This document shows positions 1,438 through 40,581 of a stretch of DNA of 40,581 nt, piece by piece (position 1 is the stretch's first letter; the number at the start of each line of letters is the position of its first letter). Source of the DNA: Endomicrobiia bacterium (GTDB lineage Bacteria > Elusimicrobiota > Endomicrobiia > Endomicrobiales > Endomicrobiaceae). A program made the translations under genes and the position numbers. The stretch lies in assembly GCA_009776745.1 (NCBI GenBank), contig WRNH01000009.1, positions 1-40,581 on the forward strand. Reading direction: 5' to 3'. The notes under the pieces were generated by a model. The model had not been told where the DNA came from and did not search any database. It saw only the letters and a program-made list of their open reading frames with translations.

Positions 1438-1483
1438 GACACTTGTCGTTGATTTGTAATTTGTAATTCGGAATTGCCGTTCA
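1438..1483. repeat. AATTAC-type short tandem repeat (gatttgtaatttgtaattcggaattgccgtt), related in reverse orientation to 12877-12947
   Basis: Direct reading. About 90% identity over roughly 30 nt to the reverse complement of the 12877-12920 repeat. Confidence 0.6.
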
Positions 1484-3526
1484 TCTCCACGGATAAAATA
1501 TCGCCTCATCCTCATAATTCGGAATCTGTCCGTCGACATCGGCAGTTCTTGAGAAAGGCATATTTGTTTTCAAATCAAACTTGGCAAAAACTTCGTGGTA
1601 TATGTCTCTTATTCTCCACGAAACGCCAAAATTATAACAATGCAGATCTCTGTATATTTTAAATTCGTGTTCGTTCATTCTGGAATATATTTTATCAAGT
1701 TTTGAAGTGGTTCTTATATTGTAATCAAGGCGCCATTTGGGAGTAATCCAAATCCCCAGCCCTATAGTATTATCCATTTCCTGATTTCTGTAAGACATTG
1801 AAGGCGTGTCGTAATATTGGTAAAAAGCTCCGAAATTGAAATAAATTTTTTCAAGTTCCCCCAAAGTAGCGTCAAGCTGCGCGGATCTGAACATGAAAGG
1901 ATCCAGCGACTGGGTTTGTTTAAAGTATACCGTCATATAATGTTTCGGCGTGTAAATAATTTCAGTCGACAGCGGAGTCCATCTGTTTGCCGAGCCCGTT
2001 CTGTAATCCATAAAATTGTACGCTGTAAAATTCCTGACGGTCGTCCTGTTGCCTACATACATATAATTCGTAAAAGAAAGCATATTGGACTCTATTCCGT
2101 AATCATTAGCGCTGCCGTCTATGTTTAAAGAATTTTTTTCGCTCCTCACGCGCGTATTATACGCCATGTTCCAATCCATCCACCGCGTAACCCTCAAACG
2201 TGAGTTTAAAGTCGCAAAATACCTCGTCAGGAAAGTATGATCTTCGTTATCATAATTGTCTTTGTCATCCCAGCTTCCGGTCATTCCGAGAGAAGGTTTC
2301 AAAGTGAACTTTCTTCCGAATCTGAAATCTCTCGACACCGTATATGTCGCGTCAGCCGTATTTTTATAAAAATAATTACCGAAACTGTATTGCCTGTACG
2401 TATTGGCATAGTTAAAAGTAAAATTATTGACCAAATCCCAGATTATTTTCTTAGGATAAATATTGAAGCTGACTTTCGGAAGAGTCATCGACGTAGTTTC
2501 ATAATCTCCGCTAAGGCTGTCATAAGTATCAACTCTGTCCAGCGCTATAAGCAAATTCGTATTTCTTCCCTGCCTCGTCGCTGAAAAATAAGAATTCAAA
2601 GTGTTCATCACCCTGTTCCAGTCGTCGCTGTAATAATTATTGAAACTTTGGTCGCTTATAAGTTCCGCCTGCGACTGTATAGTCCATTCCCTGCTGACTC
2701 TCTGCCAATAATACGGACGCACCGTCCATCTGTTATATCCAGCCGAGAAATCTTCTATATAATACGCGTAAATGCTGCCCCTGCTGTTATTGGTAAAATA
2801 ATCGAATTCACCGCCGTATCCCCATCCTCTTGAACCGTAAAAATCAAGCATGGCTTTGCCTTTGGCCTGATCGGTAAACTGATACTGGAGAAAATTCTTA
2901 ACTGAGAAAGAGCCGTCGCTTGTGTACCCCGGTTCAATGCCGTATGTCAATCTTGAAGAAATGCCTTTTCCGCCTTTTAAAGATTTTGTTACCACGGGAA
3001 GATAGAAAACCGGAACTTTTCCTACATAAAACACCGCGTTATATATCGTTACTCTTTCATTTAAAGTTATTTTGCCTTTTCTGGATTTAAAGTAAGTATG
3101 AGGTTCATCCAAATCGCAGTTTGCTATTTTTATATTGTGCACGGCAAAAACATTTTTTCCCTGCCTGTCCATGCGCTCGGAACGCATGAAAATCATGGAG
3201 GAATAAGCCAAAGATTCTCTTATTTCGCCCGTTTCATCGTCATATTTATATGTTATGCTTTCGGCAAAAAAAGAGTTTCCGTCTTCTTCAATGCGGACAT
3301 TGCCGCTGGCGTGCATAAGCTTTTCTTCAATAAAAAAATCGACAAAATTTGCTTTTACCTCTTTACCCTGCCAAACCAAAACGACATTGCCGGACGCGGT
3401 GATTTTGCCGCAATTCTGGTCGTACTCAAGGTCGTCCGCGGAGATATCCACCTGATAAGAATAAGCGCAAGCGGCTGAAAATAAAATAATTGCAAAAGGA
3501 ATGATTTTTTTTAAGAGAGTCATCAT
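1481..3526 (-). CDS. lptD: LPS-assembly outer membrane protein LptD (OstA family)
   Basis: Signal-peptide-like N-terminus MMTLLKKIIPFAIILFSAACAYS. OstA-N-like region (KITASGNVVLVWQGKEVKANFVDF ... ASGNVRIEEDGNSF) followed by a long Y/F/W-rich beta-barrel-type C-terminal region. Start taken at the ATG ATG at 3521-3526 rather than the ORF-track start at 3604, which would overlap glcK. Confidence 0.72.
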   Translation of the reverse strand: MMTLLKKIIPFAIILFSAACAYSYQVDISADDLEYDQNCGKITASGNVVLVWQGKEVKANFVDFFIEEKLMHASGNVRIEEDGNSFFAESITYKYDDETGEIRESLAYSSMIFMRSERMDRQGKNVFAVHNIKIANCDLDEPHTYFKSRKGKITLNERVTIYNAVFYVGKVPVFYLPVVTKSLKGGKGISSRLTYGIEPGYTSDGSFSVKNFLQYQFTDQAKGKAMLDFYGSRGWGYGGEFDYFTNNSRGSIYAYYIEDFSAGYNRWTVRPYYWQRVSREWTIQSQAELISDQSFNNYYSDDWNRVMNTLNSYFSATRQGRNTNLLIALDRVDTYDSLSGDYETTSMTLPKVSFNIYPKKIIWDLVNNFTFNYANTYRQYSFGNYFYKNTADATYTVSRDFRFGRKFTLKPSLGMTGSWDDKDNYDNEDHTFLTRYFATLNSRLRVTRWMDWNMAYNTRVRSEKNSLNIDGSANDYGIESNMLSFTNYMYVGNRTTVRNFTAYNFMDYRTGSANRWTPLSTEIIYTPKHYMTVYFKQTQSLDPFMFRSAQLDATLGELEKIYFNFGAFYQYYDTPSMSYRNQEMDNTIGLGIWITPKWRLDYNIRTTSKLDKIYSRMNEHEFKIYRDLHCYNFGVSWRIRDIYHEVFAKFDLKTNMPFSRTADVDGQIPNYEDEAIFYPWR

Positions 3527-3531
3527 TAAAG

Positions 3532-4476
3532 CTATTGATTTGCAAGCATGGCCGCTCCTACTACGCCAAGTTTGCTTGTATAATGAGAGACCTTTATTTT
3601 GCATGCCTTTACGGCGGATTTAAAAGCTCTTTCTTCAATTTCTCTATTTGCCGGAGCAGTTAAATATCTGCCGGCAAGGCTGACGCCTCCGCACAAAATA
3701 ACAGTATCGGGATTGGCAAAATTCAGCAGGCCGGCAAGCAAGATCCCGAGTTTTTCCCCGACATAACGCCATATTTCAACAGCCGCTTTGTCGCCTTTTA
3801 CCGCGGCGTCATAAAGAACTTTAGGAGTTATCAAAGAGTAGTCTTTGCCGGTCACTTCATCTATCATTTTCGAATTGTGTTTATTTAAATAAATTTTCGC
3901 GTATTCGGAAACATATTTTGCGCCTATATAAGTTTCTGCGCATCCGGAATTGCCGCATTTGCATTTGCAGCCGTTAGGGTCGATCGTTATATGCCCGATT
4001 TCTCCTGCGGTGCATGTTGTTCCCCTGTAAAGTTTTTTGCCGAATATAAGGCCGCCTCCGACTCCGGTTCCCAAAGTAACGCATACGAGATTGTCGGATT
4101 TGCCCTTTGCGTCAAGCCAAAAAGCGCCTATCGCAGCTGTGTTTGCGTCATTATCCACTTTAACTTTTTTATTCGTAAGATTTTCCATGATCTCTTTGAG
4201 TTTTACGTTTTTCCATTTCGGAAGATTCGGAGAAAAGCGCACAATGCCTTTTGTGAAATCTATGTCGCCGGCAATGCCTATTCCTATATTTTTTGTTTTT
4301 GAATAATTTTTTAAAGCCGAAGCCTGGCTTATGATCGATTGTATGACATTTTCGGGAGTTTGTTTCAGCTCGGTCTTTAAGGAAGTCTCTTCTATTATTT
4401 TGCCTTTGCAGTTTACTATGGCAATTTTGATATTTGTTCCGCCCATATCTACGCCCAGATAAAGTTGTGTTGACAT
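3532..4476 (-). CDS. glcK: ROK-family glucokinase
   Basis: N-terminal LGVDMGGTNIK ATP-binding motif and the ROK zinc motif CKCKCGNSGCAETY. ATG at 4474-4476 verified. Confidence 0.8.
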   Translation of the reverse strand: MSTQLYLGVDMGGTNIKIAIVNCKGKIIEETSLKTELKQTPENVIQSIISQASALKNYSKTKNIGIGIAGDIDFTKGIVRFSPNLPKWKNVKLKEIMENLTNKKVKVDNDANTAAIGAFWLDAKGKSDNLVCVTLGTGVGGGLIFGKKLYRGTTCTAGEIGHITIDPNGCKCKCGNSGCAETYIGAKYVSEYAKIYLNKHNSKMIDEVTGKDYSLITPKVLYDAAVKGDKAAVEIWRYVGEKLGILLAGLLNFANPDTVILCGGVSLAGRYLTAPANREIEERAFKSAVKACKIKVSHYTSKLGVVGAAMLANQ

Positions 4477-22429: not shown

Positions 22430-22810
22430 TTATCTGGCTGATGAATCAGCAGCCTTTTTAATAATCTCATTAAATTCTGCAATATCTTCATCGGACTCAA
22501 GCCATTTTACATTGCCGCTACTTTTACCGCTTGCTTCGTTAACGCCGTCTTCTTTTGCCTGCGGGATAAAAACTTTAAATTCCGTTTCAAGAATTTCAGT
22601 TTTCTTTCCGTTTTTTGTATCGCCGACTAAAGCCGTTTCCAAATCGTTTGAAGAATTTTTTGAGCCATCATCGTTCAATATTTTTTGAAATTTCTCTATA
22701 TCTTCCGAAGAATCAAGTTTTATAACGGCTTCATGACTCTGTGAATAAGCCAAGCAAAATATACCTGCGGCAAACACCGCCGCGGCAGAGACGAATATTT
22801 TTTTTATCAT
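22430..22810 (-). CDS. Small secreted hypothetical protein (126 aa) with an internal duplication
   Basis: Signal peptide MIKKIFVSAAAVFAAGIFCLAYS. Two copies of a SxEDIxxFxxIL-type module. ATG verified. Confidence 0.4.
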   Translation of the reverse strand: MIKKIFVSAAAVFAAGIFCLAYSQSHEAVIKLDSSEDIEKFQKILNDDGSKNSSNDLETALVGDTKNGKKTEILETEFKVFIPQAKEDGVNEASGKSSGNVKWLESDEDIAEFNEIIKKAADSSAR

Positions 22811-24800: not shown

Positions 24801-25679
24801 CTATCGGGGATGATATTTTTTATGCTGCTGTTTAAGTCTGCTGTTCTCAAGATGCGTATATACCTGCGTTGTTGAAATAGAGCTGTGTCCGAGCATCTCC
24901 TGAACAAAGCGTATGTCCGCTCCGCCGGCAAGCAAATGGCTTGCGAATGAATGCCTTAAAGTGTGAGGAGTAATATTTTTATTGATGCCGGCATTTCTTG
25001 CTATATTTTTAAGCTGCCGCCAAAATTCTATACGGGATAATTTTTTTCCGAGCCTTGAAATAAAGACATTTTCTTCAACTCCGGCCGCAGGCTTTCTTTT
25101 TCTTAAATAAACGTTCAAAAAATCTTTTGCTTTTGACCCGAACGGAATCAATCTTTCTTTTGAGCCTTTCCCCAAAACCTTAAGAAAAGCGTCGTCAATA
25201 TTAATGTCGCAGAATTTCAAGTTAATTAATTCCGAGACCCTCAAGCCTGTCGCGTAAAGCAGTTCAAGCATTGCCCTGTTTCTTATATTCATTTCATCCG
25301 AGGCGGCGACAGACGTTAACAGACGTTCAACTTCGTCAAAAGAAAGCATCCCCGGCAAATCTTCCGGTATCTTGGGCGCCGCGATATAAGCCGTCGGATT
25401 ATTTTTTGCCAAATCTTCAATATTTAAAAACTTATAAAACTGTCTCAAAGATTCCATCATTCTATAAATTGAACGCGGTTTTAATCCTTCGGTTTTGATC
25501 TCCCACAAAAAATCGGTTATATCATTATGGCGCATCTTTTCAATATCAAAATTTTTCTTTTTACAGAACTCAAAAAACTTATTCAAATCCGACTTATACG
25601 CCAAAACCGTATTTTTAGACAAGCCTTTTTCGACGGTTATATAGCTGATAAAGTCATTGAATGTTTTGTTTATATCCAT
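24801..25679 (-). CDS. xerD: Tyrosine site-specific recombinase XerD/XerC
   Basis: Core-binding N-domain. The catalytic R...HTLRHSFASHLL...LGHSSISTTQVYTH tetrad region is present. The ORF-track start at 25691 is TTG. The ATG at 25677-25679 (MDINKTF) is used. Confidence 0.85.
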   Translation of the reverse strand: MDINKTFNDFISYITVEKGLSKNTVLAYKSDLNKFFEFCKKKNFDIEKMRHNDITDFLWEIKTEGLKPRSIYRMMESLRQFYKFLNIEDLAKNNPTAYIAAPKIPEDLPGMLSFDEVERLLTSVAASDEMNIRNRAMLELLYATGLRVSELINLKFCDINIDDAFLKVLGKGSKERLIPFGSKAKDFLNVYLRKRKPAAGVEENVFISRLGKKLSRIEFWRQLKNIARNAGINKNITPHTLRHSFASHLLAGGADIRFVQEMLGHSSISTTQVYTHLENSRLKQQHKKYHPR

Positions 25680-25716
25680 AGTTGGTACCAAAAAAAACGA
25701 AACAATAGCGCCGGGG

Positions 25717-27651: not shown

Positions 27652-29163
27652 TCACGCATCAATTTCAGCTTTTATTTTATATCCGTCATTATTTTTTATT
27701 ATTATTTTATAGAACTTTCCGCATTCTAAAGTTTTATCATATAATATTTCCGTGCTTCCGTCTATTTCCGGAGCCTGAAAAACGCTTCTGCCGGAAATCA
27801 AATACTTTTTCCCATGCTTTACGCATTTTTCTGCAAGAAATTCCGTCCTGCCGTTTTGTCTTTTTCGGGCTGCCGAGCCGCCGGACTGATTAACTTCCGC
27901 AGTTAAAGCGTCAATCTTTGCTTTAAAAACATCATATTGCGCTTTTTCAACTTCAACTCTTCTGCGCGCTGCAAGCTCACGGCCGATATGCCTTTTTAAT
28001 TTTGAAGAAGCGGCTTCTTTCTGATCGGAATATTCAAATACTCCCGCATACTGGAAATATCCCGTTTTAATAAAATCTGTCAGCTCTTTTACGTCTTTAT
28101 TTGTTTCGCCCGGAAAACCCGTTATAATTGACGTTCTTAAAACGATGTCCGGAATTTTATTTTTTATCTTTTCAATTACCCGTCTTGTGTTCAACGGTCT
28201 TTTCATCGCGGAAAGCACCTTTCTGCTTATGTGCTGCACCGGAATGTCAATATACTTACATATATTTTTGTACTCCTTAAAAACATCCAGAAACGGATCC
28301 GTTATGCTTGACGGATAAGCGTACATTAACCTTATCCACTTAAAATCAATTTTTGCAAGCTTTGCAAGCAGTTTATCTAAAGCAAATGCGTCGTATATAT
28401 CCAAACCGTAAGAAGTCGTATCCTGAGCTACCAGTATAAGCTCTTTCACGCCGGCCTGAGCCAAAGATTTTGCTTCCGCGTACAGAGAATCTATTGTACG
28501 GCTTGTAAATTTTCCCCTCAAATCCGGAATTATACAAAAACTGCATCTATGATCACACCCTTCGGCAATTTTTAAATAAGCTGAAGGCAAATGAGAAGAC
28601 AGGATCCTTTGTTTTGAATCGTTTAATCCGCCGGGCAAAAGCAAATCATTTGCCAAAAGCGGATTATCCGCTTTTTTATTTAAAATCAAAGCGGGAAGCT
28701 TATCCAAAGCTCCCGTTCCCGTATAACCGTCTATCAAAGGAAATTTTTCAGTTATTTTTTCTTTAAGAAGCTGCGGCAGACAGCCGGTAACATAAACCTT
28801 AATGTTTTTCTTCTTCTTTAAAAGCAGAACATTTTTTATGCATTCTTCGGACTCAACCCTTGCGTCGTGAATAAAAGAACAAGTATGTATAACTACAGCG
28901 TCGGCATCGCTTAAACCGGCGCTTGGCAGATAACCGTTATTTTTTAAAATCCCGAGCAGATACTCGGCTTCTACCGTATTTTTCGGGCAGCCTAAAGTTA
29001 TTACCGCAACCTTTACAGGCGAAGCTGAAAGAGGAGAACGGAAACCGGAATTAACAGCGCCGTATTGCTTTGCGGATTTTTCGCTTCCGCCCATAATGAC
29101 AAGGCTTATCCTTGCTTTTTCCGCTGATTCGTAATTTTTCCTGTCTTTATTTCCATTTTCCAC
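27652..29163 (-). CDS. rimO: Ribosomal protein S12 methylthiotransferase (radical SAM, MTTase N-domain plus TRAM)
   Basis: KVAVITLGCPKN MTTase N-domain and the radical-SAM CxxxCxxC (CDHRCSFC). C-terminal TRAM-like region. The ORF-track start is GTG at 29161-29163 with no SD. The first ATG is at 29092-29094. The true N-terminus is uncertain. Confidence 0.78.
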   Translation of the reverse strand: MENGNKDRKNYESAEKARISLVIMGGSEKSAKQYGAVNSGFRSPLSASPVKVAVITLGCPKNTVEAEYLLGILKNNGYLPSAGLSDADAVVIHTCSFIHDARVESEECIKNVLLLKKKKNIKVYVTGCLPQLLKEKITEKFPLIDGYTGTGALDKLPALILNKKADNPLLANDLLLPGGLNDSKQRILSSHLPSAYLKIAEGCDHRCSFCIIPDLRGKFTSRTIDSLYAEAKSLAQAGVKELILVAQDTTSYGLDIYDAFALDKLLAKLAKIDFKWIRLMYAYPSSITDPFLDVFKEYKNICKYIDIPVQHISRKVLSAMKRPLNTRRVIEKIKNKIPDIVLRTSIITGFPGETNKDVKELTDFIKTGYFQYAGVFEYSDQKEAASSKLKRHIGRELAARRRVEVEKAQYDVFKAKIDALTAEVNQSGGSAARKRQNGRTEFLAEKCVKHGKKYLISGRSVFQAPEIDGSTEILYDKTLECGKFYKIIIKNNDGYKIKAEIDA

Positions 29164-29172
29164 TTTTCACTT

Positions 29173-30141
29173 TCAACTTTGTCTTTTTAAGACTACGGTA
29201 TTAACATCCTGCACTGCGCCTGCGTCAACATCAATTTTAATGCCGTTAAAAAAAACGTCAACTCCGGGAGTATATCCTATTTTGACATTAAATTCGTCAT
29301 TTGCTTTCCAGGTCTTCTTCGTTCCTTTGACTATAGTTCCCTGAAAAAATTCCCTGCCGTCGCCCTCAACTCTTATCCATACGTTTTCAATAGCAATGAT
29401 TTCAAGTTCCTGCTTGTCATTTTGCTGTTTTACGGCAGGAACTGCCGCTGTCTGAATCTCGTTTACATTCCGTATAGCGGCGGATTCGGATTTTGGAGCC
29501 GGCTGCGCGACGATCTGTTCATGCTTTTGAGGAAAAGGCTTCAGCGCTTCATTCGCGCCGTTTTCCGTATCCTTTTTATTACTTTCAGCTGATATTTCCA
29601 CGGGCATGTTCCGCTCTTTAAGTTCCCGTTCTCTTTGCTCGCGAAGTTCCTGCATCTTTTGAATTTGCATTTTTTTTTGTTCTATGGCAGGAATTCTGTC
29701 GGGATTTTCTTCGGTGAATGCCGAAATATTTTTATTCATATATAAAAAAGCCGCGCATAAAACCAAAGCTATAAAAACCGTAATAAATAACTTTTTTAAA
29801 TCGCCGCCGCTTTCTTTGGCAGATTTTGCTTTAGGCTTTTTTGATATAAAACCGTTCTTGTTTTTTTCATTTTTTGCGGAACCGCCGCCGTCCTCGTTTC
29901 CTTCGCTCTCATTTTTTCTTTTTTCATATTGGGCGAGCAAATCATCTCCGTTAAGCCCCAAATATCTGGCATAAGACTTAACAAAACTTTTATAATAAAT
30001 TTCCGCGGAAAACACCGTCTCATCGCCGTCTTCGATAGCCGAAATATATTTTTCCTGAATTTTTGTCGCTCTGTGGACTTTGTCTAAATCCAAGCCCTGT
30101 TCTTCACGTTTATCTTTTAAAATTTTCCCGAGTTCTTTCAT
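29173..30141 (-). CDS. rodZ: Cytoskeleton protein RodZ (N-terminal XRE-type HTH, single TM, C-terminal DUF4115-like domain)
   Basis: N-terminal HTH (LGKILKDKREEQGLDLDKVHRATKI), a basic/acidic linker, the TM helix LFITVFIALVLCAAFLYM and a beta-rich C-terminus. ATG verified. Confidence 0.7.
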   Translation of the reverse strand: MKELGKILKDKREEQGLDLDKVHRATKIQEKYISAIEDGDETVFSAEIYYKSFVKSYARYLGLNGDDLLAQYEKRKNESEGNEDGGGSAKNEKNKNGFISKKPKAKSAKESGGDLKKLFITVFIALVLCAAFLYMNKNISAFTEENPDRIPAIEQKKMQIQKMQELREQRERELKERNMPVEISAESNKKDTENGANEALKPFPQKHEQIVAQPAPKSESAAIRNVNEIQTAAVPAVKQQNDKQELEIIAIENVWIRVEGDGREFFQGTIVKGTKKTWKANDEFNVKIGYTPGVDVFFNGIKIDVDAGAVQDVNTVVLKRQS

Positions 30142-30151
30142 TAATAATATC

Positions 30152-30808
30152 CTAGTTAAGTTCTATAATTTCTACGCCTTCCGGAGCTGTAAATTTAAAA
30201 ACGTCTTTTTTAATATTCCGGTTTACTTTATATTCGCCGATATTCACGTTTACGACAAGTCCCGCGGCCGTAACGACCGCTTTTGCGGGGAGCATAGTTG
30301 TTTTGTCCACGTGAAGCTGCATGTTCCACTCATTTTTTTGCGCCGGAACTATTTCGATGATATGATTTTTTTCATCTTCTCCGATATAATTTATTGAATT
30401 GTCTTTCCGTATAGTCTTCCAATTGCTTCCGAAGTTTACCATTGATGTCGGCGTAAAATCTCCGTTGATAACGTCTTTCCAGTTATCTACCACGGCCTGC
30501 GAATTTTCGGGAGTGTATATCGTAATCTTTTTGCCGTCGATATAAATCCTTTGTTCCTGGGGAGTTTTCTGGACTATAAAAATACTGTTCGGTTTCTTAT
30601 ATTTCAGATTACCGGTAATATTCTGCGTCTCTTTTGTCGCAGAATAAAATATTTCCTGGGTATAAGTAATTTCAGCGGCGTCCATTTTTTTATCGACCGC
30701 TTCCATCTTGGCCAGCACATCGTTCAATTTTATCTCATTTGTCTGCGCAAAAGCATTCATAGAAAAAACCGTTAAAACGGCAAATGCAAAAATATTTATC
30801 TTTTTCAT
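30152..30808 (-). CDS. lolA: LolA-like periplasmic lipoprotein carrier
   Basis: Signal peptide, about 200 aa mature protein, LolA-like pattern (G.L.YKKPN..FIVQ.TP.EQ.IY.DGK...YTP). Its position immediately downstream of ftsK mirrors the ftsK-lolA linkage seen in many diderms. Confidence 0.55.
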   Translation of the reverse strand: MKKINIFAFAVLTVFSMNAFAQTNEIKLNDVLAKMEAVDKKMDAAEITYTQEIFYSATKETQNITGNLKYKKPNSIFIVQKTPQEQRIYIDGKKITIYTPENSQAVVDNWKDVINGDFTPTSMVNFGSNWKTIRKDNSINYIGEDEKNHIIEIVPAQKNEWNMQLHVDKTTMLPAKAVVTAAGLVVNVNIGEYKVNRNIKKDVFKFTAPEGVEIIELN

Positions 30809-30809
30809 T

Positions 30810-31307
30810 TTAATACCCCCTTAACTGTTCGTTAATTTTTTCATTATTTATAAGCCAATCCGAAGCCCCGCTCCGCTTGACTATATAACCGTTATCCTGC
30901 AAATACTGCAGCAGTTCTTTTGCCTTAGAGTAAGAACCGAAGTTTATTTCTAAAAGATCAAGCGATACCCTCTGGCGGTCTTTTATAAGTTTAAGGACTG
31001 GCATAAGATCTTTCATTGCATTTCTGGAACCGGCTGTCGCAGCAGACGTATCGATAGGGTTTCCTCTTTGCTCATGCATTCTGAGTATCTTATTCTGCGC
31101 TACAAGAGCTTTTTTAGGCAGCCCCAGATATTCGCAATAGTAAGATAAAATATCGTCATAATTTTCCAAATTGATAAAAAGCGCGGTATCTCCGTCTTCC
31201 AATCCTTCCAGCAGCATCGCTATTATTCCGGTTTCTTTTGAAACATCATCGATAGAAAGCCCTTTTGCTTCACGTTTTTCTTTTAAGTATTCTCCGATTT
31301 CTTTCAT
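30810..31307 (-). CDS. Small soluble protein (165 aa) combining a RodZ-like N-terminal HTH domain with an FtsK-gamma-like winged-helix C-terminal domain
   Basis: The N-terminal roughly 75 aa are paralogous to the RodZ N-terminus in this window (MKEIGEYLKEKREAKGLSIDDV.. vs MKELGKILKDKREEQGLDLDKV..; ..YCEYLGL vs ..YARYLGL). The C-terminal roughly 60 aa are paralogous to the FtsK C-terminus in this window (LMPVLKLIKDRQRVSLDLLEINFGSYSKAKELLQYLQDNGYIVKRSGASDWLIN.EKINE vs LIPALTLINERKRVSQDLLKANFGSSARATNILSVLEMKGFITKPEGTNKWQINYDKINE). There is no TM segment. ATG with an AAGAGGTG SD. The stop is 1 nt from the lolA ATG. Confidence 0.6.
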   Translation of the reverse strand: MKEIGEYLKEKREAKGLSIDDVSKETGIIAMLLEGLEDGDTALFINLENYDDILSYYCEYLGLPKKALVAQNKILRMHEQRGNPIDTSAATAGSRNAMKDLMPVLKLIKDRQRVSLDLLEINFGSYSKAKELLQYLQDNGYIVKRSGASDWLINNEKINEQLRGY

Positions 31308-31320
31308 TTTGGCACCTCTT

Positions 31321-33495
31321 TTAGGAATTCATGTCCAGATACTCATTTATTTTATCATAATTTATCTGCCATTTGTTAGTGCCTTCGGGTTTTGTTATAA
31401 AACCTTTCATTTCAAGAACGCTCAATATATTAGTCGCGCGGGCAGAACTTCCGAAATTCGCTTTAAGCAGATCCTGCGAAACTCTTTTGCGTTCGTTAAT
31501 AAGAGTAAGCGCCGGAATCAAATCTTTCAAGCTTTTTTCCTCTATAAGGTCAAGTTTTTCGCCCGACACTTCAACGGCTATAGGCTCGTATATCCTCGGA
31601 AAATTTTGACCGTTTATAAACTCGATTATCTTTTCCGCCTCTTTTAACGATACGTACGCCCCCTGCAAACGCGCCGGTCTTGCTTCTCCCGGAGGCAAAA
31701 ACAGCATATCTCCTTTTCCGATCAGATCTTCGGCTCCAAGCGCGTCCAATATAACGCGGGAATCTATTTTTGACGTTGTCTGAAACGACAGCCGCGCCGG
31801 AAAATTAGCTTTGATTACTCCGGTAATAACATTTACCGACGGCCTTTGCGTCGCAAGTATCAAATGGATCCCTACTGCTCTTGCCATTTGGGCAAGCCTT
31901 TGCACGGAATCTTCGATCTCCTTTTGCGCGACAAGCATCAAATCCGCGAGTTCGTCTATTATTACCACAATATAGAATTCTTTTTCCCTTCCTTCCTCGA
32001 TCATTTTATTATTGTAATCTTCAATATTTCTGACCATTTCTCCGGCAAACTTCATATATCTTTCTTCCATGACGGTTACAAGTTTCTTTAACGCCGACGC
32101 GGCTTCTCTGGGGTTTGTAATAATATCAGCGTCTGCGGCGCAAGAGCACGGATTATAAAGATGCGGAATATCTTTGTAAATAGGCATTTCAACGCGTTTC
32201 GGGTCTATCAGCATAAATTTAACTTCATCAGGGCGCGCTTTATATAAAATTGAAAGTATTATGGTATGGATGCCGACGCTTTTTCCCGAGCCGGTAGCTC
32301 CGGCAATAAGCAAATGAGGCATTGCCGCCAGATTTGCGACATAGCCTTCTCCGTCGGTCGTTTTTCCGAGCGCCAGAGAAAGAAGCGATTTCGAATTCTC
32401 AAAAGCGCGGCTTTCCAAAATCCCGCGAAGCCCCACTATAACGCTTTCGGGATTTGGCGCTTCTATGCCCACGGCGGCTTTTTCGGGTATAGGCACGACT
32501 CTTATTGACGATGTCCTCATCGTAAGAGATATATTGTCAATAATATTTGAAACCGCCTGTATTTTTACGCCCGGAGCCAAAACTAAATCATAACGCGTAA
32601 CTACGGGGCCCGGTATAATATCTTTTACTTCAGCGGCAATATCGAAATCCGCAAGCGTTTTTCTTAAAAGCTCGGCTCTTTCAAGAAGCTTGTCTTTATT
32701 TGTTTCAAAACTTACAGCCGGATCATTTTTCAATATATTCGTCGAAGGCAGCTTGTAGTCAAAACTCTTGCTTTCGATTTTTTCCGGTTTATGTTTTTCT
32801 TTTTCCGCCTTTTCTTTGACGACCTTTTCATCTTTTTCTTTTTTGCCGACTATATTAGGCTTAACGGGTTCGGGTTTTGAAACAACCGTAGGCTCCTCCG
32901 TCCTGACAACGGGAGGTTCCGGCTTTCTTTCCAAAACATTAGGCTTAAGTTTTTCTTTAGCGTTTTTATCTTTTTGGGAATCTTCCGTAAACCCTTTGAT
33001 AAAATGATATATTGCCGAGCTTAACGAAATTCTGAAAAGTTTTGCCGCGGAATATATAAAAATTATCGCCGTGACCGAAAATCCCAGCGTTATGCCCAAA
33101 AGCTGCTCAAAAAAAGGAAATAACTTATCTCCTATCCAGCCGCCGTAGGTGTTGATTTCAAACAAAAGCCCCGAGAATGAAAACAAAACCGCTCCCGAGA
33201 TCATACAGAAAACCGACCATATAAAATCCATTCTCCCTCTCAATTCAAGGGATTTGCTTATCTGCACTATAAAAAACCAAAGAAATATGAAAGGAAGAAT
33301 ATAAGTAGCGGTGCCGAACATTTGAAACATTATATTTGTAAACCCTTTGCCTATCATGCCGGAACTGTCAGGCACTATCACGGCATACGCGCATACAAAC
33401 GCCGCCAAAACAAAAAACAGGGCGACAACTTCCCTGTTTCTGTTTGCATTATTCATTTTTTGTTTTTTATTTTTTGTTTTATTTTCTCTAGCCAC
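31321..33495 (-). CDS. ftsK: DNA translocase FtsK (N-terminal 4-TM domain, Pro/Lys/Glu-rich linker, RecA-like motor, C-terminal gamma domain)
   Basis: Walker A LIAGATGSGKSVGI and Walker B IVVIIDELADLM. The ORF-track start is GTG at 33493-33495 with an AGAGGA SD. An in-frame ATG lies at 33456. Confidence 0.9.
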   Translation of the reverse strand: MARENKTKNKKQKMNNANRNREVVALFFVLAAFVCAYAVIVPDSSGMIGKGFTNIMFQMFGTATYILPFIFLWFFIVQISKSLELRGRMDFIWSVFCMISGAVLFSFSGLLFEINTYGGWIGDKLFPFFEQLLGITLGFSVTAIIFIYSAAKLFRISLSSAIYHFIKGFTEDSQKDKNAKEKLKPNVLERKPEPPVVRTEEPTVVSKPEPVKPNIVGKKEKDEKVVKEKAEKEKHKPEKIESKSFDYKLPSTNILKNDPAVSFETNKDKLLERAELLRKTLADFDIAAEVKDIIPGPVVTRYDLVLAPGVKIQAVSNIIDNISLTMRTSSIRVVPIPEKAAVGIEAPNPESVIVGLRGILESRAFENSKSLLSLALGKTTDGEGYVANLAAMPHLLIAGATGSGKSVGIHTIILSILYKARPDEVKFMLIDPKRVEMPIYKDIPHLYNPCSCAADADIITNPREAASALKKLVTVMEERYMKFAGEMVRNIEDYNNKMIEEGREKEFYIVVIIDELADLMLVAQKEIEDSVQRLAQMARAVGIHLILATQRPSVNVITGVIKANFPARLSFQTTSKIDSRVILDALGAEDLIGKGDMLFLPPGEARPARLQGAYVSLKEAEKIIEFINGQNFPRIYEPIAVEVSGEKLDLIEEKSLKDLIPALTLINERKRVSQDLLKANFGSSARATNILSVLEMKGFITKPEGTNKWQINYDKINEYLDMNS

Positions 33496-33569: not shown

Positions 33570-33776
33570 TTATTTAAGAGATATTCTGTAGCTGTAATCC
33601 TGCTGCACAATATTGACTTTATTTTCTCTTGCAAGCCAGCCCAAAGCAAGATACAGCATTGTGTTCGACAAGCCTAAATTCGCCTTAATCTTTATAGGAG
33701 ACGACTCTCCGTTTTCAAGCAAATAATTCCAAACCTCTCCCGCCGCAAATCCTACTCTGTCAATCATATCAGCCAT
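33570..33776 (-). CDS. Small winged-helix (DUF2582-like) protein
   Basis: 68 aa. The ATG at 33774-33776 (MADMIDRV) has an AAGGGG SD. The ORF-track start at 33806 is GTG. A single wHTH-sized fold is predicted. Confidence 0.4.
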   Translation of the reverse strand: MADMIDRVGFAAGEVWNYLLENGESSPIKIKANLGLSNTMLYLALGWLARENKVNIVQQDYSYRISLK

Positions 33777-33814
33777 TATTTTACCCCTTAAAAATACAAT
33801 TTTCACTTTAGATA

Positions 33815-37154: not shown

Positions 37155-40100
37155 TTATGCCGCCTGCAGCATGCTTCTCACTGTGGAAGCCGATATTTTT
37201 GTTCCGTTTTTAACATTATTGATCATTTTGGCAACCGCAAAACCGGACATTGAATCATTCACAAGAGTAAACGCTCTCTTGGCTTCGTCCATCTTTTCCG
37301 GCGAGACGCTTAACGGATCTGAAAGTATTTCATTTATCAGGCTTCCTGCTTCCGCCAATAATTCCGAGATTTTTCTTTCTTCGCCGCTCATCGCCAGCTT
37401 CTGCACGGAAAGAAGTTCGCTTATTGTTGCGGAGTCCAGCTTTTGTCCGTTAACGGCCATGTAAAGCATCAGCGATCTTATGGTTTTTCTGTCGCTTACG
37501 TTTACATTGTCAAGGTAATAACCTATATCTACTCCTTTCATGCCCGCATACTCTTTCTCAAGATATTTTTCAACGGCCGCCCTTATATAAGCTTTCGCGG
37601 AAGCGTAACTCTCCTCCGTGCCGGTTTCCTCCATATCCGCCGCATATTTATACGCAACGCTGTCTTCCCTTATCCCTGCAGCTTTCAAAGCTTCCGTCAT
37701 TCCTTTAAAATTTATGCCTTTATCGGGCTTTTGAGTCATAAAATCTCTAAGCAGTCCGATATTATTTAAGTCGAGGCCATTAAGGATATATTCAGACTCA
37801 TACTTATATTTATACACATCGTCGGCGCCTGCGGCAACCGTCTTAAACGCTCTGTCATATGTGGTTTTATATCTGCCGGCGGAACTCTTCACTCTTGATT
37901 TGTCTTTTGAAACTCCCGTCGTATCTCTCATAAACGCCGTAACAACTCTGCCTTGCACCGAAACCAGCTCGTCTCCGTTGTCCATTCCCGCCATTTCAAC
38001 GGCAATATTGCTGAACCTTCCAACGGCTCTTTCAACGTCGACCGCAGTGCTTTCGCCTTCGACCGTTACGACTGCCGTTATCGAACTGCCGGCAATAGAA
38101 GCTTCAAATTCAGATATCATGGAAGCGTTTTTTGCGGAATTATTTCTGTCAAAAATTATATAATTCTGAGCGTCTATCCCATACCTGTCGGAAATTTGTT
38201 TTACCGCGTCTATTACCTTGGCCGCGTTCTCCGAAGAGAGTCCCGTAACGTCCGCGTAAATCCCTTTGAACCCGATGAGATACGCTTTACGTATTAAATC
38301 CGCATTCACACTTCCGTCGTTATTAATGAGATCGGACAGTTTTAAATCGGCAATTTTTTTCACATTGTTTCCGGTATTGAGAATATTCCTTATTCTGACG
38401 ACGCTGCTTAATTCTTTTCCGGAAGATTCCGCGCTTCTTTCTATTATTTGGCTGTACAAAACTTCTATCGCGGTTTTTATATCGGCATTTACTACTCTCA
38501 ACAGAGAAATATTCTTTGATTGTTCATTATCCGTATATTTAGCCGTCGAACTTGCATCCGTAAATCTCGGAGAGCGCTCGGTATCTACGATACCTCCGTA
38601 TTCATTGCCCGGCATCTGCCAGTTTTTGCCTCTTTCCTTTCTGGCAGAGATCTCGGCCAAAAGCTCTCCCGTTTTCTCTCTTATCAAACCGTCTTTATCA
38701 AAATACTGCGCTATTTTACCGTCTCTGAGTTCAAAAATTCCGGAATCGCTTATATCTTCGACCGTAATTCCGTTATCCTGAAGAAGCTTATTATCTAAAG
38801 AAACACCCTTGTAAACTATCATTCCGGCTCCGCTTACGCCTAAATTCCTTTGCAGCTTCTGCACGTTTCCGTTAATATCCGCCGCAAAATGTTTGGCCGA
38901 CAAGATATAGGCCTGATTGTACATTTCCTCTCTCATCGACTCAGGCACTTCGGAATCAAGCTGCGCATTGTTTAATACAACGCATTTTATCACGGGATTT
39001 AATCTGAAAACCTCCACATTTCCTTCCATGCTTCTAGGAACATAATGCTCAACCGTCACATAATACACAGTTCCGTTGTATATTACTGGAACGGATGTGT
39101 TCGGCTTGATTCTGTCATAATCATTAGGAAGAGAATCTCTCTCGGATCTTTGCATTATCACCGATTTTATTCCGATATCTTCTTTCATCATAGACAAAAC
39201 CTGCGTTCTTGTCTCAAGGGAAATACTATAATTTTCTACAAAAAACTGTATGCCGGAAGCTATTGAGTTCTGTTTGCTGCCGGATATAATATTGTCATTG
39301 ATCCATTTCTCTATAGCTTTTCCTAGAGTTATAGTTGACAAAACAAGCTCTACAAACTGTTTAAAATCTACGGAAGACTCTTCCGCAGATTCAGTGCCTG
39401 TTTCTATGACTGACGGCAATACTTCTGCTTCTAAGCCGCCTTCATAGGCAGCGGCGGCAACGGCCTCATAAGCCTCAATATCGGCTCTTAATCCGGCAAC
39501 GATATCGTTTCCGAACGCCTGCTGAAGCGCGGCATATGTCTCGTTTAATTCAGATCCTTCGCTTATTTTGTCAAATTTCGATACGTTAAGATTAGCAAGC
39601 GCAAGCTTATCATTGACAGCCTGTATTGCGGCCGCCTGCTGAAAGTAAAGGCTTGCAAATTCGTTTAATTTTTCTTTTTTAGTACCGGTGGCTTCCGTAT
39701 CGGCAGCCAATATTTTTTCCAGAATATTAAAAAGCTGATCGGCTTTCGGTTTTGTATAAGAAGCAAGCAGCAATTCCATGTATTCATTTTTCTTGTCTCC
39801 GGTCTGCTTTACGGCTTTATTGAGCGCTATTATTTCGTTTCTCATATCAGATATCTTCTTTTTGTTGTCTTTAATTATATTTTTCTGTTCATTGTAGCCT
39901 CTGAATATAAAATATCCAAAAAAAACCAACGGCAAGGCAAAAGCAGTAATAGCGACGAACATAATAGGATTAACACCGAATATAACATTCCCCATCCCGT
40001 TTTGGACTTTCGCGATATAAGCTCCCAGCATTTTGCCGTATTTGCTGGCATAAGGATAAGCAATACCAAACGTTACAAGAACAATCAGCGTCGGAATAGG

Positions 40101-40581
40101 AGCAATAAAAGCAAGTACGGCGGCACCTATTCCAACTGCCATTAACCCGAGAGATTTCAAGAAATCTTTATTATTTTTAGCAGTCTGTTTCTGCACTTTT
40201 TCTACAAATCTGTTCAATTCGTCTTCGCCGATTTTATTTACAAGCTCGCTCATTTTGATTTTTCTATCTTCTTTCTCTGCGGCTTTTTTCAAGTCCAGAA
40301 CCATTTGCGCCAAACCTTTTGCCGGATTTTTATAATCGTTCAATGCAACTTTAAACAATCCTTCGTTGAACGGCACGTCCATTTCAAAATTTTCAAGATT
40401 TAAAACGGAAGCATATTGCTCAATATCTATAGTGGCAAGCGTCTTCGTAAAACTGGTTACCGGGAAACCATGCTTTTTGAGAACAGCGGCATTCCCTTTG
40501 TAAGGGTCTGTCATTCCAAGCCTTGTTCCGAAAAAAAGTATCATAGCGCCTACCGCAAATAACAGAACGGCGGCTGAAGTT
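37155..40581 (-). CDS. Large (>1140 aa) multi-pass membrane protein of unknown family. The 5' end is truncated by the window edge.
   Basis: The reading frame stays open to the window edge (the rc of 40545-40580 reads TSAAVLLFAVGA, continuing a TM helix). At least 4 TM helices lie in the N-terminal roughly 230 aa. A roughly 900-aa C-terminal region follows, with a coiled-coil-like A/E-rich stretch and no motifs I can assign. The terminator lies downstream. Confidence 0.5.
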   Translation of the reverse strand, partial: TSAAVLLFAVGAMILFFGTRLGMTDPYKGNAAVLKKHGFPVTSFTKTLATIDIEQYASVLNLENFEMDVPFNEGLFKVALNDYKNPAKGLAQMVLDLKKAAEKEDRKIKMSELVNKIGEDELNRFVEKVQKQTAKNNKDFLKSLGLMAVGIGAAVLAFIAPIPTLIVLVTFGIAYPYASKYGKMLGAYIAKVQNGMGNVIFGVNPIMFVAITAFALPLVFFGYFIFRGYNEQKNIIKDNKKKISDMRNEIIALNKAVKQTGDKKNEYMELLLASYTKPKADQLFNILEKILAADTEATGTKKEKLNEFASLYFQQAAAIQAVNDKLALANLNVSKFDKISEGSELNETYAALQQAFGNDIVAGLRADIEAYEAVAAAAYEGGLEAEVLPSVIETGTESAEESSVDFKQFVELVLSTITLGKAIEKWINDNIISGSKQNSIASGIQFFVENYSISLETRTQVLSMMKEDIGIKSVIMQRSERDSLPNDYDRIKPNTSVPVIYNGTVYYVTVEHYVPRSMEGNVEVFRLNPVIKCVVLNNAQLDSEVPESMREEMYNQAYILSAKHFAADINGNVQKLQRNLGVSGAGMIVYKGVSLDNKLLQDNGITVEDISDSGIFELRDGKIAQYFDKDGLIREKTGELLAEISARKERGKNWQMPGNEYGGIVDTERSPRFTDASSTAKYTDNEQSKNISLLRVVNADIKTAIEVLYSQIIERSAESSGKELSSVVRIRNILNTGNNVKKIADLKLSDLINNDGSVNADLIRKAYLIGFKGIYADVTGLSSENAAKVIDAVKQISDRYGIDAQNYIIFDRNNSAKNASMISEFEASIAGSSITAVVTVEGESTAVDVERAVGRFSNIAVEMAGMDNGDELVSVQGRVVTAFMRDTTGVSKDKSRVKSSAGRYKTTYDRAFKTVAAGADDVYKYKYESEYILNGLDLNNIGLLRDFMTQKPDKGINFKGMTEALKAAGIREDSVAYKYAADMEETGTEESYASAKAYIRAAVEKYLEKEYAGMKGVDIGYYLDNVNVSDRKTIRSLMLYMAVNGQKLDSATISELLSVQKLAMSGEERKISELLAEAGSLINEILSDPLSVSPEKMDEAKRAFTLVNDSMSGFAVAKMINNVKNGTKISASTVRSMLQAA

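Follow-up and report, generated by a model that had tools for sequence, protein, structure and literature searches.

RodZ proteins begin with an HTH (helix-turn-helix) domain of about 80 aa that shows the HTH_25 five-helix fold (2WUS, 3FYM, 4GQM) and is followed by a juxtamembrane region, a transmembrane helix and the RodZ_C domain. In Thermotoga maritima two aromatic residues of this HTH lie at the interface with MreB subdomain IIA, and the exchanges Y53A and Y57A (corresponding to E. coli F60A and Y64A) weaken binding (PMC6946637). FtsK and SpoIIIE carry a winged-helix gamma domain (PF09397; 2J5P, 2VE8/9, 5DCF) attached to a translocase motor, and E. coli gamma reads the FtsK-orienting polar sequences (KOPS) with R1300, E1303 and E1306 (PMC2680272) and contacts XerD with Q1288, R1289, R1292–G1294 and N1296 of the same surface, the salt bridge between R1289 and XerD E184 being critical (PMC5052618). 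Gamma can also work or occur away from the motor, as isolated gamma or gamma fused to XerC or XerD activates recombination at dif (PMC3130261) and the small terminase of the phages Sam46 and Sam112 has an N-terminal FtsK_gamma (PMC8190038). XafT of TLC-phi, consisting of an HTH and DUF3653, is a small soluble protein that binds XerD and thus a precedent for FtsK-independent XerD control (PMC6744903). Here we describe a gene, named X, from an Endomicrobiia bacterium (contig WRNH01000009.1 of assembly GCA_009776745.1, positions 1 to 40,581; these 40,581 nt are called the window), which encodes a RodZ-type HTH fused to an FtsK-gamma-type winged helix. Both kinds of domain are known and the new feature of X is the architecture, of which limited literature searches turned up no description, in line with the sequence-only reading that had first pointed to this gene. 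X and the two related domains of its neighbours are located as follows.

30810..31307, minus strand: gene X, encoding a 165-aa soluble chimera of a RodZ-type HTH, a linker and an FtsK-gamma-type winged helix (open reading frame (ORF) list, homologues)
31068..31307, minus strand: N-domain of X, aa 1–80, XRE/HTH_25 fold of five helices and paralogous to the RodZ N-domain (BLASTP, Pfam, PDB, Foldseek)
31020..31067, minus strand: linker of X, aa 81–96, disordered and fast-evolving, probable duplication-junction region (model confidence, substitution rate)
30813..31019, minus strand: C-domain of X, aa 97–165, winged helix H1-H2-H3-beta-beta with an extra C-terminal helix, FtsK gamma paralogue
31324..31533, minus strand: gamma of the resident FtsK, aa 655–724, Elusimicrobiota variant and proposed first donor paralogue (sub-threshold Pfam match, hhalign)
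29902..30141, minus strand: HTH N-domain of the resident RodZ, aa 1–80, with the aromatics Y49 and F53 intact, proposed second donor paralogue (HTH_25 E = 1.9e-18, alignment)

The N-terminal part of X is clearly related to RodZ. Its aa 1–83 share 40% identity with aa 1–82 of the adjacent RodZ (BLASTP, E = 7e-14), Pfam HTH_25, the RodZ-type HTH, matches aa 7–67 with E = 1.5e-9 next to sub-threshold matches of HTH_19, HTH_31 and HTH_3, and the NCBIfam rodZ model aligns to aa 2–70 with a score of 33.5 (cutoff 375). The top three PDB sequence matches of X are all RodZ N-domains, namely 4gqm (Chlamydia CT009), 3fym (S. aureus YmfM) and 2wus_R (T. maritima RodZ with MreB), and a Foldseek search with the N-domain returned 3fym as the top hit and 2wus_S with a template-modelling score of 0.77. 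Unlike RodZ, X has neither the transmembrane helix nor the periplasmic RodZ_C domain, for which no Pfam match was found in X while the resident RodZ matches it with E = 6.4e-14; instead the HTH is fused to a winged helix. Among the N-domain matches we also saw soluble proteins of 185–261 aa with two tandem RodZ-type HTH_25 domains (P0022, P0026, P0030, P0069, P0131 and P0149), which represent another RodZ-HTH architecture without a membrane anchor.

The C-terminal part is related to the end of FtsK, with aa 97–162 of X being 50% identical to aa 655–720 of the adjacent FtsK (BLASTP, E = 1e-18) and 10 more FtsKs matching with E from 1e-14 to 7e-19. Both alignments are much too strong to be accidental and agree with the proposal of the sequence-only reading that X is a chimera of paralogues of its immediate neighbours. 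The domain shows the three-helix winged-helix fold of FtsK gamma and is basic (pI 9.02, resident FtsK gamma 9.1), and with neither FtsK_SpoIIIE nor FtsK_alpha detected by Pfam no translocase motor is attached to it. Whether the name gamma is justified had to be addressed indirectly, as direct searches of Pfam, NCBIfam and PDB sequences did not label the C-terminal half as gamma and its homology was therefore built transitively and by structure. The gathering score of Pfam FtsK_gamma is 30.6 bits, and when the threshold was relaxed PF09397 matched the C-terminal 70 aa of the resident FtsK with E = 0.016 and 15.4 bits over model positions 10–60 of 63. The same family is matched by the very C-terminal end of six out of eight related FtsKs (E from 9e-4 to 0.03). 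An FtsK_gamma annotation is absent from all of the 120 closest FtsK relatives. Using hhalign and the gamma sequences of E. coli and P. aeruginosa, which were verified against PDB 2J5P and 2VE8, we obtained P = 4e-4 for the Elusimicrobiota FtsK C-domains and P = 1.1e-4 when X was included, and the colinear register was identical in these two comparisons and in that of X alone. The position of the C-domain in Elusimicrobiota FtsK is that of gamma in FtsK. From the sub-threshold Pfam matches, the hhalign results and the domain position we conclude that the C-terminal half of X is a paralogue of, and homologous to, a divergent Elusimicrobiota-type gamma. As a profile of Elusimicrobiota gammas did not retrieve the PDB gammas, X is not a gamma member at the Pfam level. 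Hence the gamma relationship proposed from the sequence holds and an unrelated winged HTH is contradicted by BLASTP to FtsK, hhalign and structure, while the label itself needs the restriction that X and the local FtsK are both below the Pfam threshold.

The Elusimicrobiota FtsK C-domain is itself a divergent gamma subfamily, scoring 14–19 bits against the PF09397 cutoff of 30.6, with an extra C-terminal helix that X shares and that is a difference from known FtsK gamma. Its consensus is ALKLIxERRRVSQDLLKA[NH]FGSSARATNILSxLExxGFIxKPEGTN[KR]W..DKIxxYL, and it was seen in the window (31324–31533, minus strand), P0015, P0043, P0048, P0086, P0109, P0129 and others. Stand-alone gamma domains, assumed to be rare when X was first noticed, are not rare inside Elusimicrobiota, where gamma also occurs with a Zn-ribbon (P0038, P0065, P0081), with TPR (P0013, P0017), with a C-terminal transmembrane helix (P0059, P0068, P0070, P0107) and as two gammas with a transmembrane helix (P0012); P0038 is the only one of these carriers with a taxon name (Elusimicrobia). 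Like X and the phage terminases they reuse gamma outside FtsK. Unlike X the Zn-ribbon, transmembrane and TPR carriers keep the FtsK-type recognition helix GSSARATN, as the phage proteins keep the DNA-reading residues of their host FtsK (PMC8190038), and X is the only gamma carrier fused to a RodZ-type HTH. One possible role of the Zn-ribbon, transmembrane and TPR proteins would be that of membrane-tethered readers of the same DNA motif.

In the full-length AlphaFold2 model X consists of two folded domains joined by a disordered linker, with a predicted local distance difference test score below 50 over aa 82–99, and X is thus predicted to fold as two independent modules on a free linker. The divergent homologue P0011 (212 aa) has an insertion of about 50 Pro/Gln-rich residues between the domains, which indicates that the linker length is free to vary in the X family. 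No transmembrane helix and no long hydrophobic segment is present across the 165 aa, in accordance with the soluble protein expected from the first inspection.

We regard the identity of X and its origin by duplication as well supported. A tandem duplication of the segment from the gamma-coding 3' end of ftsK over lolA to the HTH-coding 5' end of rodZ would have fused the 5' part of rodZ to the 3' part of ftsK at the duplication junction, giving ftsK-lolA-X-lolA-rodZ, and a later loss of the upstream lolA copy would have left the observed order ftsK-X-lolA-rodZ. Such a duplication necessarily creates an HTH::gamma junction ORF in the domain order and orientation found here. The C-domain of X is most similar to FtsK gamma of its own clade (50.7% identity; other Endomicrobia reach 48.4% and other Elusimicrobiota 43.6%) and shares with it the clade-specific motifs NFGS, MKDLxPAL and KINEYL. 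RodZ-like sequence extends to about aa 83, and the FtsK-like part sets in at aa 79–97. The closest gamma in the own clade, the shared motifs and these boundaries all point to an origin in place.

A word-indexed search yielded nine full-length X homologues with 56–100% identity and 52 invariant columns. When 1.84 billion cluster representatives were searched exhaustively with a hidden Markov model, no more than two scored E < 1e-30, both being the same fusion as X, and the remaining matches were RodZ-type HTHs or the Elusimicrobiota gamma module. No further HTH and gamma fusion was hidden among 10 short HTH_25 matches, none of which carries gamma and several of which are tandem HTH_25 proteins. 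Wherever X is present the gene order is ftsK-X-lolA-rodZ, and the compared loci are arranged as follows.

Window, L001–L003 and L008–L010: ftsK-X-lolA-rodZ
E. proavitum, L012, L006 and L007: ftsK followed directly by lolA, no X
L011: rearranged 3' of ftsK, no X
Endomicrobiellum trichonymphae: no X, with lolA and rodZ left as decayed fragments

In a neighbour-joining (NJ) tree of FtsK the genomes with X form a monophyletic group together with L006 and L007 (bootstrap 100/100), with the latter two nested inside the X clade (96/100), and the X-containing genomes alone were never monophyletic (0/100). This tree indicates that X was gained once and later lost once. X and FtsK split into corresponding subclades, which fits vertical inheritance, and X is inherited vertically within one Endomicrobia clade. 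The ratio of nonsynonymous to synonymous substitution rates (dN/dS) is 0.10–0.14, with dS being saturated, and dN of X is similar to that of lolA and below that of rodZ. Within X, dN reaches 0.37–1.17 in the linker compared with 0.10–0.36 in the domains, and protein identity is kept at 54–86% across the clade. ORF, ribosome-binding site and coupling are intact in every locus with X. Absence from close relatives had been named at the outset as an observation that would refute the proposal, and this applies only in part. X is missing from E. proavitum, Endomicrobiellum, further outgroups and the two nested lineages, but at least 12 lineages retain it as a functional gene on which purifying selection acts. 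In the flagellate endosymbiont Endomicrobiellum trichonymphae (AP017459.1; L005, 7191–7910) the places of lolA and rodZ hold ORF fragments of 59, 83 and 57 aa, one of which keeps an HTH_25 remnant, consistent with decay after genome reduction.

Having identified both relatives of X, we compared the residues by which they bind their partners. For the RodZ-type half the MreB-contact residues were taken from the review PMC6946637, and the alignment was gapless and included 14 RodZ sequences, of which 10 came from Endomicrobia loci and four were references (three from PDB entries and that of E. coli). Both contact positions are aromatic in all 14 RodZ, whereas all 12 X have Asn and Ile, Val, Leu or Met there (N49 and I53 in the window). 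The YxxYLGL motif of helix 4 is kept. For the gamma half the residues were mapped via the hhalign register, which crosses a one-residue gap and is accurate to about one position, as listed below.

E. coli Q1288: K in resident FtsK gamma, E (Glu120) in X
E. coli R1289: A in resident FtsK gamma, I in X
E. coli R1292: G in resident FtsK gamma, G in X
E. coli Y1295: S in resident FtsK gamma, Y in X
E. coli N1296: A in resident FtsK gamma, S in X
E. coli R1300: N in resident FtsK gamma, E (E131) in X
E. coli E1303: S in resident FtsK gamma, Q (Q134) in X
E. coli E1306: E in resident FtsK gamma, Q (Q137) in X

The KOPS-reading residues are not retained in X, and neither X nor the resident FtsK gamma has conserved those by which E. 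coli gamma contacts XerD. In X the wing loop PEGTNKW of FtsK gamma is changed to RSGSSDW. In the X family the H2-H3 and wing residues, which differ from those of FtsK gamma, are invariant or nearly so. As they are replaced yet invariant, X does not simply keep the parental binding surfaces and has a new conserved one. The partner side is changed as well, with Lys at the equivalent of E184 in all six Endomicrobia XerD compared (window, L001, L002, L003, L013 and L014; aa 186–190 in the window). Together with Lys-Ala at Q1288-R1289 of the resident FtsK gamma this means that the E. coli gamma-XerD interface is not conserved at the residue level here. Glu120 of X would be charge-complementary to this Lys of XerD, which we regard only as a lead.

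X is part of the gene string ftsK-X-lolA-rodZ-rimO-pgsA-pgpA, in which the following elements are of importance.

31313..31319, minus strand: ribosome-binding site of X, AGAGGTG, inside the 13-nt ftsK-X spacer (from the sequence)
30816..30822, minus strand: ribosome-binding site of lolA, AAGGGGG, within the last X codons (L-R-G-Y)
31321..33495, minus strand: ftsK, 724 aa (Pfam FtsK_4TM, FtsK_alpha and FtsK_SpoIIIE)
30152..30808, minus strand: lolA, 218 aa (Pfam LolA, E = 1.4e-15)
29173..30141, minus strand: rodZ, 322 aa, HTH_25, transmembrane helix and RodZ_C (Pfam)
24801..25691, minus strand: xerD, 296 aa (TIGR02225, 366.9 bits, cutoff 329.6)

The ORF of X starts with ATG, 7 nt downstream of the Shine-Dalgarno motif GAGGTG, and equivalent GGAG or GAGG motifs are present in the ftsK-X spacers of 13–20 nt found in L001–L010. 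In the window the stop codon of X is separated from the lolA ATG by 1 nt, and the two genes overlap by 8 nt in L002 (6718–6725) and L008 (6674–6681). The conserved R-G-(G)-Y C-terminus of X may result from the lolA Shine-Dalgarno sequence being encoded there (window 30810–30824). By its sequence X therefore appears as a co-oriented, tightly coupled gene with its own ribosome-binding site in the ftsK-lolA-rodZ string, just as the sequence-only reading had described the operon.

Some neighbouring genes deserve mention. Immediately 5' of ftsK lies a 78-aa DUF2582 winged-helix ORF (33570–33806, minus strand) as a second small winged-HTH protein linked to ftsK, which is found in the window and in nine of the 10 related loci with called genes (not in L005, E. 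trichonymphae) and occurs in genomes with and without X alike. The rimO ORF (27652–29163, minus strand) has 503 aa when read from GTG and is about 55–65 aa longer at the N-terminus than related RimO (435–450 aa), its true start being probably further downstream, which would give a longer rodZ-rimO spacer. Three ORFs on the minus strand are listed without a family, 1481–3604 (707 aa), 37155–40544 (1129 aa) and 22430–22810 (126 aa), with no Pfam match at E ≤ 1e-6 and no NCBIfam match at E ≤ 1e-5; the 1129-aa ORF sits beside rpsO, where E. trichonymphae has carB.

As a working model we tentatively propose that X is a lineage-specific functional chimera, born by duplication, that has taken on a new function as a soluble adaptor or regulator in division or segregation. 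The mechanistic part of this proposal, namely the action as a soluble adaptor or regulator, is a weak suggestion that we consider possible rather than probable. With its remodelled H2-H3 surface, in which E120, F123-G124-S125, Y126 and K128-A129-K130-E131 are family-invariant, the basic gamma-type winged helix would still bind either DNA or a partner of the Xer type, and owing to this remodelling we propose that its specificity is not the one of the resident FtsK gamma. As for the acidic HTH of the RodZ type, it would act as a protein-protein module, for which, with the canonical MreB aromatics being lost, we propose another partner as more likely, either X itself, the RodZ HTH or a non-canonical MreB surface. 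That isolated gamma activates XerCD-dif away from the motor is a precedent (PMC3130261), yet these proteins were constructed in the laboratory and their gamma surface is unchanged, whereas X occurs naturally, carries a RodZ-type HTH and is remodelled at this surface.

Several observations weigh against the reading of X as a duplication-born RodZ-gamma chimera with new functions. The intermediate ftsK-lolA-X-lolA-rodZ was not seen among the loci and inspection of the printed sequences by eye revealed no lolA remnant in the 13–20-nt ftsK-X spacers, and the duplication origin therefore remains a model. The C-domain alone has no match to Pfam FtsK_gamma (PF09397) at E ≤ 10 and hhalign of X alone against gamma gave P = 0.011. 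Y50, which adjoins one of the lost aromatics, is invariant in X and could still support MreB binding. The scenario of one gain and one loss comes from a single-gene NJ tree, that of FtsK, and the loss in the nested lineage L006/L007 shows that X is dispensable at least there.

Alternatively, X could be a soluble regulator of the Xer system whose gamma-like domain touches XerD or the FtsK motor and which would either activate XerD catalysis independently of FtsK or, as a decoy, keep activation low. The activation of dif recombination by gamma without the motor (PMC3130261) would fit, as would XafT (PMC6744903), in which, as in X, an HTH is joined to a module potentially directed at XerD, although its activating domain is unrelated (no Pfam match to DUF3653 was found in X at E ≤ 0.1) and it belongs to a mobile element next to dif, whereas X is chromosomal and part of a housekeeping operon. 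Further support could come from the invariant Glu120, which replaces a Lys of FtsK gamma and could form a charge-swapped contact with the Lys at E184 of XerD. Moreover xerD is encoded in the same gene string, 5.1 kb downstream of X on the same strand, confirming the distance of about 5 kb given initially. However, genomes without X show no different ftsK...xerD synteny, and the linkage predates X. Additionally no change in XerD follows the presence or absence of X, the Lys being found in both kinds of genomes among the six XerD, the XerD-contact residues of E. coli gamma are absent from X and the resident gamma, and the residue mapping on which Glu120 depends is precise only to about one position. 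We consider this role unlikely.

X could also be an ordinary transcription factor or nucleoid-associated protein made of an XRE HTH and a winged HTH, for example one that autoregulates the ftsK-lolA-rodZ operon, as both folds are classic DNA-binding folds, the C-domain is basic and the source annotation at NCBI is merely 'helix-turn-helix domain-containing protein'. Besides the HTH_19, HTH_31 and HTH_3 matches in Pfam, scans with PHROG and PADLOC gave only generic HTH matches, which also means that there is no phage or defence signal for X. Against such a regulator stand the acidic N-domain (pI 4.66), the report that the RodZ-subtype HTH does not bind DNA (PMC6946637) and the parentage of X, both parents being cell-cycle proteins and not regulators. 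A promoter and terminator scan within ftsK-X-lolA found nothing convincing, and no operator or motif specific for X-containing genomes stood out 5' of ftsK or X when the printed sequences were inspected by eye. Overall this explanation appears quite doubtful.

The sequence-only reading itself had suggested that X links MreB to terminus-region or KOPS-like DNA, or that it and FtsK gamma compete for one and the same KOPS motif or for XerD, which we now find improbable. The parentage of the domains, the overall conservation of the RodZ-HTH fold (2wus_S, see above), the retained Y50 and YxxYLGL motif and the intact aromatics of the resident RodZ, which suggest that MreB is present, would agree with a bridge. 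Both experimentally defined MreB-contact aromatics (PMC6946637) are replaced in all X, however, while all 14 aligned RodZ keep them, the three KOPS-reading equivalents are E/Q/Q in X compared with N/S/E in the resident gamma, and the wing loop is altered. Competition presumes the same binding surface and is weakened because X differs from the resident gamma at the equivalents of Q1288, R1289, Y1295, N1296, R1300, E1303 and E1306. A far-reaching and rather speculative reading, which we think is very improbable, would make X a natural motor-independent gamma factor that addresses the Xer machinery through a Glu120-Lys bridge as a charge-swapped version of R1289-E184, with the RodZ-derived domain tethering or timing it via the elongasome or divisome; if true, a single duplication junction would have created a chromosomal link between cell-wall growth and chromosome-dimer resolution. 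Finally, a non-functional junction ORF or annotation artefact, to which the narrow distribution, the one secondary loss and the absence from the cultured relative E. proavitum might point, is rejected by the selection data, with dN/dS of about 0.1 at saturated dS, 54–86% identity across the clade, intact ORF, ribosome-binding site and coupling in every locus and an X tree congruent with that of FtsK.

In summary X, with its narrow distribution in an uncultured clade and a predicted role, neatly illustrates how a new gene probably arose in nature from the tandem-duplication junction between adjacent cell-cycle genes. Selection has since maintained X, and its remodelling concerns precisely those surfaces that the parent domains use for their partners. 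Furthermore, Elusimicrobiota possess a divergent FtsK gamma subfamily that is missed by standard Pfam annotation and whose module was also recruited into a number of further small proteins. If the ligands of X are identified, they could point to a so far undescribed soluble factor that regulates chromosome segregation or the resolution of dimers, or to a new use of the RodZ HTH fold.

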